Assembly (NCBI GenBank): GCA_043765155.1 | Contig: JAYUJP010000053.1 | Location: 14,116 to 78,115, forward strand | DNA: 64,000 nucleotides | Reading direction: 5' to 3' | Origin: a bacterium | GTDB lineage: Bacteria > Patescibacteriota > Minisyncoccia > Phycocordibacterales > UBA5272 | Shown: piece after piece, positions 2,836 through 4,360 of the stretch | Numbering within the stretch: position 1 is the stretch's first letter | How the letters are laid out: every line of letters starts with the position of its first letter | Notes under the pieces: generated by a model | Databases searched by the model: none | Seen by the model: only the letters and a program-made list of their open reading frames with translations | What the model was told of the DNA's origin: nothing | Program-made: the position numbers and the translations under genes

Positions 2836-4360
2836 TGGAATTAATCCACGACCAGCTTCCGCTAGCCGTGCCTTGTTACGACTTACTCCTTGTCACCGAA
2901 CTTGCCTTAGTCCTCAATTTAATGAAGCCTTTGGGCACTTCCAGCTTCCCTGAGTTGACGGGCAGTGAGTACAAGAGACGAGAACGTATTCACCGCGGTT
3001 TAGCTGACCCGCGATTACTAGCAATTCCGGCTTCATGAGGGCGAGTTGCAGCCCTCAATCTGAACTGGCGCATCGTTTGAAGGATTGGCTCAGGGTTACC
3101 CCGTCGCGACCCGTTGTCGATGCGATTGTATTATGTGTGTAGCCCAAGGTGTCAAAGGGACATGCTGATCTGGCGTCATCCTCTCCTTCCTCCCCCGAAA
3201 GGGGGCAGTCTCGTGTGACATTTAAAACACACGACGAGGGTTGCGTTCGTTACCCCACTGAAGGGAACAGTTCAAACCACGAACTGACGACGACCATGCA
3301 TCACCTGCTAGATAGCCTTGCGGGGGCCGTGTTTCTACGGCTTACATTCTAGTTTCAAACCTTGGTGAGGTTCTTCGTTTATCATCGAATTAAACCACAT
3401 AATCCACTGCTTGTGCGTCTCCCCGTCTATTCCTTTGAGTTTTAATCTTGCGATCGTACTTCCCAGGCGGCAGACTTACCGCGTTAGCTTAGCCACATTG
3501 AGGGTCGATACTCAATATAGCGAGTCTGCAACGTTTAGGGCGTGGACTACTGGGGTATCTAATCCCATTCGCTACCCACGCTTTCGTGCCTCAGTGTCAG
3601 TAATGTTCCAGTATGCTGCCTTCGCTTTTGGTGTTCCCATATATATCAACGGATTTCACCCCTACACATATAGTTCCGCATACCCCTAACATACTCAAGA
3701 CATGACGTTTCAATAGCAATCCACAAGTTGAGCTCATGGGTTAAACTACTGACTAACATGTCCACCTACGCACTCTTTACGCCCAATAATTCCGGATAAC
3801 GCTTGGACCACTCGTTTTACCGCTGCTGCTGGCACGAGTTTGGCAGGTCCTTATTCATAGGGTACCATCAATAAACTTTTTCCCCTATAAAAGATGTTTA
3901 CATACCGAAGCACTTCATCCATCACGCGGTGTCGCTCCGTCAGGCTTTCGCCCATTGCGGAAGATTCTCGACTGCAGCCACCCGTAGGTGTATGGGCCGT
4001 GTCTCAGTCCCATCGGTGGAGGTCAGCCTCTCAGCTCTCCTAAGCGTCATAGGCTTGGTAGGCTTTTACCCTACCAACTACCTGATACTGTTCTGGCCTA
4101 TCCCTAAGCGATAAATCTTTACTCTTGCGAGACCATCTTGTGTTACTCCACCTTTCGGTGGGCTATTCAAGACTTAGGGGGAAGTTCCAAAATATTACTA
4201 CCTCGTTTGCCACTAGACTGTCAGTCTTCCACATATTGCTTGTTCTTGTATTGCTACTCGACCTTACTCTATGCTTCTAACTGATTAGTCCCGTTCGACT
4301 TGCATGCCTTATCCACACCGCCAGCGTTCATCCTGAGCTAGGATCAAACTCTAAAAATAA
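2836..4360 (-). rRNA. rrs: 16S ribosomal RNA (divergent, CPR-like)
   Basis: The 5' end matches AGAGTTTGATCC (revcomp at 4341-4352). The 515 region reads GTGCCAGCAGCAGCGGTAAAAC. The 900 region reads CCGCCTGGGAAGTACGATCGCAAGATTAAAACTCAAAGGAATAGACGGGG. The 1492 region reads AAGTCGTAACAAGG (revcomp at 2873-2886), followed by the h45 GGAA tetraloop. Length is about 1.52 kb, so no large insertion. Confidence 0.9.

Follow-up and report, generated by a model that had tools for sequence, protein, structure and literature searches.

A 16S rRNA gene of the Patescibacteria lacking the canonical anti-Shine-Dalgarno sequence, with evidence for probable leaderless and AU-rich-leader translation starts

The 16S rRNA gene found in a 64,000-nucleotide stretch of the tiny genome of a patescibacterium (contig JAYUJP010000053.1 of assembly GCA_043765155.1, positions 14,116 to 78,115; hereafter called the window) has no anti-Shine-Dalgarno (anti-SD) sequence at its 3' end, and this observation has been confirmed by alignment to a covariance model. 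As the best explanation of all the data, we consider it probable that the anti-SD is gone from the ribosome of this organism and that its genes are started from leaderless messages and from AU-rich leaders. Loss of the anti-SD is already known for this clade. The signature of leaderless transcripts, the preference for U directly before the start codon, the sequence of the replacement tail and a minority of foreign-looking genes that carry a Shine-Dalgarno (SD) motif are modest and incremental additions to that knowledge.

The altered 3' tail of the 16S rRNA

The window was scanned with the Rfam covariance model of bacterial small-subunit rRNA (RF00177, gathering score 50 bits) and positions 2700-3150 were scanned again. 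A full-length 16S rRNA gene was found on the minus strand (4359..2834), covering model positions 1-1533 with a score of 1346 bits, which is above the gathering score. Helix 45 (h45; minus strand, 2870..2847) is composed of CACGGCUAGC, a GGAA tetraloop and GCUGGUCGUG, and in the covariance-model alignment it forms a fully paired stem of 10 bp, followed by 13 unpaired tail positions, with maximal posterior probability in every column. The tail (minus strand, 2847..2834) reads GGAUUAAUUCCAAA in place of GGAUCACCUCCUUA and is aligned to the consensus GGAUcACCUCCUUu, again with maximal posterior probability at each column. CACCUCC has been changed to UAAUUCC and the CCUCC core, which marks a canonical SD-dependent ribosome, to AUUCC, so that UCC alone survives of the anti-SD. 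A preliminary description of this DNA, made from the sequence alone, had already proposed at 2836-2880 that CACC is replaced by UAAU, leaving only UUCC. The RF00177 alignment bears out this replacement, its coordinates and the h45 assignment, and the proposal also stands against a CCUCC placed slightly further 3', since neither CCUCC nor CUCC is present when the RNA sense is read from the tail on for 548 nucleotides (nt).

The 16S gene is unlinked to a 23S or 5S gene. No 23S follows it, no other rRNA was found by the scan of the 64-kb window, and the next feature past its 3' end is a protein-coding gene (1828-2388). An insertion of about 60 nt, as compared with the bacterial model, lies in the 5' domain of the 16S at about 4216-4290.

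Tail and trailer are identical in four independent metagenome assemblies (loci L152-L155; 99.0-100% identity), and the gene order is the same in all four: dnaE, three small open reading frames (ORFs), 16S, a 186-aa ORF and a 478-aa ORF. No tblastn match supporting synteny of the 16S-flanking genes was obtained in 149 related loci. A wider search was made in one genome per species with the pattern GTCGTAACAAGG-N20-26-GGATNADDTCC. At least 120 loci in species-representative genomes were matched, nearly all of them in metagenome-assembled genomes (MAGs) of Patescibacteria, the candidate phyla radiation (CPR); the bases TCC are fixed in this pattern, and tails that had lost UCC too fall outside the sample. 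Among the matches listed, the MAG titles name Paceibacteria, Parcubacteria, Kaiserbacteria, Nomurabacteria, Lloydbacteria and similar groups. The 11-nt tail GGATTAATTCC is present at 80 loci or more of the 120 matches listed, and the other tails are GGATCAATTCC (23 loci), GGATCATATCC (10) and GGATTATTTCC (6). In the same list, the window 16S is 94% identical to its closest matches (L026, L097 and L033) and about 79-81% identical to most other derived-tail loci. These best matches, together with the titles of the tail-sharing genomes, affiliate the 16S with CPR/Parcubacteria, and with no CCUCCU at its 3' end it is of the kind found in the anti-SD-lacking lineages of Parcubacteria. Because the same tail occurs in four assemblies and in at least 80 species genomes, it is a trait of the clade and not an error. 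Because 16S identity falls to about 79% among the genomes that share the tail, the change is old and spans a very deep divergence.

Gene starts and probable initiation routes

Complementarity of gene starts to the 16S tail was calculated for 45 window genes, each taken to start at the first ATG of an ORF that has 100 aa or more and does not overlap another. Matches to Pfam confirm the identity of dnaE, csoR, bcp, topA, dprA, a CYTH protein, hisS, ftsZ, a trxB-like reductase, rpoB and rpoC in the window. Against the canonical tail, positions -22..-1 gave a mean duplex energy of -2.44 kcal/mol (far upstream -3.15, shuffled -1.84), and against the organism's own tail -1.78 kcal/mol (far upstream -2.29, shuffled -2.61). 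In 378 genes of same-tail relatives the own-tail values were -3.30, -3.28 and -3.37 kcal/mol, respectively. Neither in the window genes nor in these 378 genes is there an excess of pairing, whether with the canonical tail or with the new one. The purine-rich, tail-complementary motif that an SD-dependent ribosome requires is not enriched before the starts, where duplex energies equal those of the controls, and SD motifs are absent from about 85% of the window genes. Absence of SDs against both the canonical and the new tail is therefore supported for most genes. The preliminary description had stated that native genes lack an SD, which is right for this 85% and fails for about seven genes with strong AGGAG-type motifs, which are described below. 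It is very likely that an SD-anti-SD helix cannot form with the tail GGAUUAAUUCC and that the choice of start codons is independent of such a helix.

Leaderless transcripts are by general agreement recognised in genome sequences from a -10 box that precedes the start codon by about 6-9 nt. Such a peak is seen among 538 genes of 114 derived-tail loci, where TATAAT-like hexamers accumulate at distances of 6-9 nt from the ATG (40, 27, 32 and 20 matches, against about 5 per position elsewhere). At this distance 119 of the 376 -10-like matches are found where 29 are expected (p=1e-41), and 23% of the 538 genes have a -10-like box at 5-9 nt, as compared with 4-5% in displaced windows. Within the window itself, 18 genes have a TGn-extended -10 box within 54 nt of the start, and in 7 of the 18 it lies at 6-8 nt (p=4e-5). 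The spacing exceeds chance in both data sets, and the putative leaderless architecture is statistically clear. Since transcription usually begins about 7 nt past the -10 hexamer, messages of genes with a box at 6-8 nt should begin at or beside the AUG.

The seven window genes with the box at 6-8 nt are as follows. Upstream of topA, the box TGTGTTATATT is 7 nt from the ATG at 21461 (plus strand, 21448..21463), and this leaderless-type start is fixed by the Toprim domain, which runs from residue 3. In dprA, identified by the Pfam domain DNA_processg_A, TGTGTTATAAT is 6 nt from the ATG at 24167 (plus strand, 24155..24169). The gene for an mnmA-type tRNA methyltransferase, with its Pfam domain from residue 12, has TGTGATATAAT 7 nt before the ATG at 38110..38108 (minus strand, 38108..38123), back-to-back with the promoter of a VIT-family gene, in which TGATATAAT is 6 nt from the ATG at 38166 (plus strand, 38154..38168). 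On the minus strand, a MazG-like gene (21385..21399) has TGTGTTATAAT and a 107-aa ORF (42697..42711) has TGATATAAT, each 6 nt before the ATG, and a NYN-domain gene (45724..45740) has TGCTATAAT at 8 nt. The Fur gene also matches the leaderless spacing if its second ATG is the start. Two divergent intergenic regions, 38111-38165 (55 bp) and 21388-21460 (73 bp), each contain two back-to-back TGnTATAAT boxes, and each box is 6-7 nt from its own ATG, giving what appear to be compact bidirectional pairs of leaderless promoters.

Other genes have boxes at larger distances and SD-less leaders. In dnaE the box TGATATAAT is followed by an A-rich leader of 15 nt without an SD and by the ATG at 5971 (plus strand, 5950..5973; PHP domain from residue 5), so this gene is of a short-leader type and not leaderless; the distance is 12 nt for hisS, 19 nt for bcp and 37 nt for ftsZ, and no good -10 box was found near the starts of rpoB and trxB. 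For topA, mnmA, dnaE, csoR, bcp, ftsZ and dnaJ the start is fixed by the Pfam domain, whose match sets in within the first 3-14 residues. The earlier proposal that start codons sit 5-15 nt after an extended -10 accordingly applies to topA, dprA, csoR (about 6 nt), dnaE and hisS, is ambiguous for CYTH, and does not apply to rpoB, ftsZ, trxB and bcp. Its broader conclusion, that initiation is leaderless or SD-independent, agrees with the spacing statistics, while the last four genes have SD-less AT-rich leaders and are not leaderless.

Start regions are open and AT-rich: the mean minimum free energy of positions -20..+20 is -1.6 kcal/mol at a GC content of 0.20, as compared with about -4.3 kcal/mol inside genes. 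Directly before the ATG (-1), 38 of the 45 window genes (84%) have a T and none has an A, against an upstream background of 33% T (p=1.5e-12), and the T is also found in 22 of the 24 window genes without a nearby -10 box. The preference is weaker in the relatives (47%), and in their SD-bearing genes T(-1) amounts to 21%. A is favoured at -2 to -6 of the window gene starts (for example, those with T(-1) at 5970, 21460 and 38165). Quadruplet pairing of the initiator tRNA through U(-1):A37 has been documented in E. coli (PMC10018350). The -1 U bias is compatible with this pairing, with the Y(-1)R(+1) rule of transcription starts, or with both.

From these data we infer transcription start sites, an initiation pathway and an order of evolutionary events as follows. 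The window would come from a patescibacterial genome of the Parcubacteria/Paceibacteria type. Its single visible 16S has the clade-conserved derived tail GGAUUAAUUCC in place of CCUCC, and initiation would follow two routes. The first is that of leaderless mRNAs, which would be made by roughly a quarter to a third of the genes. The -10 box of these genes is strong, in many cases TGn-extended, and placed 6-9 nt ahead of the ATG; their messages would start with the A of the AUG or beside it, and the ribosome together with the initiator tRNA would bind the 5'-terminal AUG. On the remaining route, short or medium, extremely AT-rich and unstructured leaders would leave the AUG exposed with a U nearly always before it, and A37 of the initiator tRNA could pair with this -1 U as a fourth base. 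The anti-SD would have been lost under relaxed selection once initiation was already SD-independent.

The last step was compared with relatives that retain the canonical tail. A metagenome scan for a CPR-type h45 followed by GGATCACCTCC gave 29 loci, from which 65 genes were obtained after masking of 16S and introns and removal of duplicates. A -10 box at 5-9 nt is present in 12 of the 65 genes, against 1-5 in displaced windows, and an SD 5-mer is found near the start in 7 of 65, against 5 far upstream. A leaderless signature together with little SD use in relatives that keep CCUCC agrees with a loss of the anti-SD through relaxed selection, and SD-independent, partly leaderless initiation seems to exist already in these relatives. 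Group I introns are present in or beside the 16S of the canonical-tail CPR relatives, plus a group II intron fragment in one of them (L137 1254-1471; L139 4879-5096 and 304-542; L146 1435-1735 and 4237-4350).

SD-bearing genes and rival explanations

About seven of the roughly 50 window genes, all on the minus strand, have a strong canonical SD at SD spacing. One is the orphan gene 1828-2388, with AAGGAGG 5-7 nt before its ATG (motif and start 2386..2400) and a GC content of 0.42, against the window median of 0.36. Three small orphans upstream of the 16S (4675-4887, 5112-5438 and 5633-5839, together 4675..5839) each have AAGGA(G) at SD spacing, and two GC-richer orphans (34572-35189 and 35252-35941, together 34572..35941) have AGGAG or AAGGAG at a distance of 6 nt from the ATG. 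The gene of an ArsP-type permease (29233-30303) is the sole non-orphan of the seven, and the other six have no match in Pfam, PHROG or NCBIfam. Four of the seven flank the 16S on the same strand (Fisher p=0.002), an arrangement that is reproduced in the four independent assemblies. Except for 5112-5438, the GC content of the SD-bearing genes is 0.42-0.44, as compared with the median of 0.36.

The same picture is obtained in the derived-tail relatives, where AGGAG is enriched at -18..-4 (36 vs 7), as are GGAG (52 vs 20), AAGGA (31 vs 8) and GGAGG (20 vs 3). GGAA, the perfect complement of UUCC, is not enriched at these positions (35 vs 27). Because GGAGG is enriched while GGAA is not, the motif fits the anti-SD of the ancestor, not the tail now in place. 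As compared with their neighbours, 58 SD-bearing genes of the relatives are shifted in GC (+2.3% vs -0.5%, p=3e-6) and are shorter. They are often orphan, secreted or lipoprotein-like, and the 15 Pfam families detected among the 55 scanned are all accessory. According to the simplest reading of these features, the SD-bearing genes would have been acquired recently. Runs of SD-bearing genes next to the 16S are also seen in derived-tail relatives (L069 3879-7400, L110 1147-3768, L117 535-3357, L112 5830-7837, and in L036 and L022), and many of their products are signal-peptide or lipoprotein-like, e.g., Gly-zipper Omp, RTX and DUF4015. Such runs could be islands that were acquired, or else the 16S may have been joined chimerically to other DNA in those MAG contigs.

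Several points weigh against loss of the anti-SD with leaderless and AU-rich-leader starts as the explanation. The SD-bearing genes are left unexplained by an SD-blind ribosome unless they are recent acquisitions. Plain TATAAT-like matches are noisy in the AT-rich window, where 36% of genes have one at 5-9 nt and 16-29% in displaced windows, and the term leaderless refers here to promoter spacing, from which transcription starts are predicted. Gene calls were crude (first ATG, ORFs of at least 100 aa), and the canonical-tail comparison is a small one with equally crude calls. UCC looks conserved in part because the search pattern selected for it. The copy number of the 16S was seen in 64 kb, and a second rRNA operon is possible.

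Among the rival explanations, the one that survives best is that positive selection has given the new tail a different role, as a terminal UCC-loop-GGA hairpin or as a site for 30S maturation (Era, YbeY, KsgA) or initiation. We regard it as unlikely, though as the least unlikely of the rivals, and it is compatible with anti-SD loss and SD-independent initiation and is not an alternative to them. The tail together with AAUUGGA is nearly invariant across lineages with about 80% 16S identity, among the matches listed. The trailer UUGGAA (minus strand, 2828..2833) is complementary to UUCC(A) of the tail, and the resulting pattern UCC-N3-5-GGA is found in 97% of 103 distinct derived tails and in 18% of shuffled trailers, a count that is inflated by related sequences. 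Canonical-tail relatives have a matching CUCC-UUUCUAG-GGAG (40% vs 3%). The tail and trailer may form a hairpin in the precursor that masks the tail. On the other hand, the stem is of 3-4 bp and never varies, so that covariation gives no support, and pairing of the conserved trailer GGA with the 5' leader of the 16S in a processing stem, for which RNAduplex proposes plausible helices, was not significant in a shuffle-controlled test (6.09 vs 5.59 bp). With an invariant short stem and related sequences, the conservation of tail and trailer is possibly one to be left as unexplained.

Two genes of the window have also been counted in favour of a selected tail. One encodes a divergent 83-aa bS21-like protein (plus strand, 48472..48723), which scores slightly below the cut-offs of PF01165 (24.5 bits, cut-off 27) and TIGR00030 (26.5, cut-off 28.95), and the other encodes the endoribonuclease YbeY (plus strand, 48814..49230; PF02130, E=1.3e-21). 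In other bacteria, bS21 adjoins the 3' tail of the 16S and YbeY is a maturation factor of the 16S 3' end; bS21 has been reported as often missing in Parcubacteria. The bS21-like gene immediately precedes ybeY, and ftsA and ftsZ come next.

A bolder form of this idea, which we consider improbable, is that the replacement tail (GGAUUAAUUCC-AAUU-GGA) is a selected functional module of an SD-blind ribosome and a translational filter, not a decayed anti-SD. If so, genes arriving from SD-using hosts, neighbours and phages would be poorly translated until they had gained a leaderless or AU-rich start with a -1 U. Candidates would be the genes with a perfect AAGGAGG that cluster beside the 16S, which are GC-richer and of the orphan, secreted or lipoprotein kind. 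The lineage would then possess a built-in barrier to, and a timer on, the expression of foreign genes, and its phages would need to imitate this leaderless code.

Next, the retained UUCC could act as a residual mini-SD partner that pairs with GGAG or GGAA in a subset of genes. The enrichment of AGGAG, GGAG and AAGGA at -18..-4 in derived-tail genomes and the presence of UCC in all recovered tails are in its favour, but retention of UCC is imposed by the search pattern, and the enrichment is of the canonical GGAGG and not of GGAA. The carrier genes, being GC-richer, shorter and mostly orphan, secreted or lipoprotein-like, also fit recent acquisition, and we give this explanation a low probability.

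CPR genomes usually have a single rRNA copy. If a further rRNA operon carried the canonical anti-SD, the cell would have two types of ribosomes, the canonical one reading the SD-bearing genes that occur in the window, and Alteromonas, in which two 16S types have different anti-SDs (PMC6107228), offers a precedent. The 64 kb contain a single 16S and most genes have no SD of any kind, which makes this explanation very improbable.

Slightly less probable again is co-evolution of SD and anti-SD, in which a new SD would be complementary to the new tail, e.g., within UUUGGAAUUAAUCC. The strong conservation of the replacement tail suggests a function, and ATTAAT (11 vs 0) and TTAAT (27 vs 8) are more frequent near starts than far upstream; these AT-rich k-mers, however, overlap variants of the -10 box and reflect the AT-rich composition of intergenic regions. 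In the window and the relatives alike, own-tail duplex energies at -22..-1 are no better than those of shuffled or far-upstream sequence, and GGAAT, TGGAA and GGAATT are not enriched, so that neither energies nor k-mers reveal a variant SD of the GGAAUU type that matches the variant tail. A variant SD matching a variant anti-SD was found in no organism by Amin et al. (PMC6107228).

A sequencing or assembly artefact or a decaying 16S pseudogene, which might be suspected because metagenomic 16S genes are often mis-assembled and this one is unlinked from 23S and has a 60-nt insertion (both features being usual in CPR; PMC9297842), is refuted in practice by the full-length 1346-bit match with h45 intact, by the same tail and flanking genes in four assemblies and by the same 11-nt tail in at least 80 species genomes.

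Other window genes, known systems and biological meaning

Genes for metal homeostasis are concentrated at 9846-11674 and 27078-40234 of the window. They include CsoR, DUF305, Fur, two adjacent CobW-family GTPases, the ArsP-type permease, VIT1 and a ZIP transporter fused to PdaC/DUF3298. A toxin gene of the YafQ/ParE type (plus strand, 46714-46995) has no obvious antitoxin ORF beside it among the calls. A 760-aa AAA_13 ATPase (463 bits; plus strand, 53797-56079) is encoded between tRNA-Glu and tRNA-Val, and rplKAJL does not adjoin rpoBC in the window.

The closest known system is that of the anti-SD-lacking Parcubacteria described by Tsurumaki et al. (2022, RNA 28:1041; PMC9297842), which is the same clade with the same trait. 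In that study CCUCCU was detected in only 48% of Parcubacteria 16S sequences, the anti-SD-less lineages overlapped with those lacking uL1, and SD helices were presumed not to form. The anti-SD loss, which the preliminary description had treated as novel, had therefore already been published for a subgroup of Parcubacteria. Presence or absence of the motif was scored there, without the replacement sequence, the promoter-ATG spacing, the -1 U or the SD-bearing minority. It was the only study found on the anti-SD of Patescibacteria, CPR or Parcubacteria, and we found no paper on leaderless initiation in these groups, in a search that left most subscription journals outside, which is weak evidence of novelty.

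In Flavobacterium johnsoniae and other Bacteroidia, genes are SD-less, as in the window, and initiation depends on start regions that are A-rich and unstructured (PMC7797042, PMC9976891). Bacteroidia mostly keep CCUCC, sequestered in a pocket of bS21, bS18 and bS6, whereas in the window 16S the sequence itself is gone. Occlusion of an existing anti-SD is thus not what is found here, even though a divergent bS21-like gene is present; and a leaderless promoter signature is not known as a hallmark of Bacteroidia.

Recurrent loss of the anti-SD together with SDs is known in genera of Bacteroidetes, in Mycoplasma, in Carsonella and in other small genomes (PMC6107228; PMC7782861). Surveys of such reduced genomes (Mycoplasma, Carsonella, Blattabacterium, Chryseobacterium; Lim 2012, Amin 2018, Nikolaeva 2020) have linked repeated loss of the anti-SD, which is the trait shared with the window, to small genomes and simplified ribosomes. 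CPR are not covered by these surveys, and the losses described in them are scattered with variable tails, in contrast to one replacement tail across a very deep radiation here. In a further comparison, Mycobacterium, other Actinobacteria and Deinococcus are rich in leaderless transcripts, and a large share of their genes has the -10 box at about 6-9 nt from the start codon, the same spacing signature as in the lineage of the window. They keep a canonical anti-SD, and SDs on leadered genes, whereas the leadered genes of the window are SD-less too.

The present analysis confirms, at the resolution of a single locus, that the textbook mRNA-docking sequence is missing from the ribosomes of a very large radiation of uncultivated bacteria. 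To this it adds genomic evidence on how start codons are probably chosen there, from leaderless transcripts and from open AU-rich leaders with a -1 U. Gene callers and ribosome-binding-site models trained on SDs will mis-place starts in these genomes, and for expression tools in CPR, designs of the type TGnTATAAT-N6-8-ATG should be preferable to SD cassettes. The trait fits the known loss of the anti-SD in reduced genomes and by itself opens no new question.

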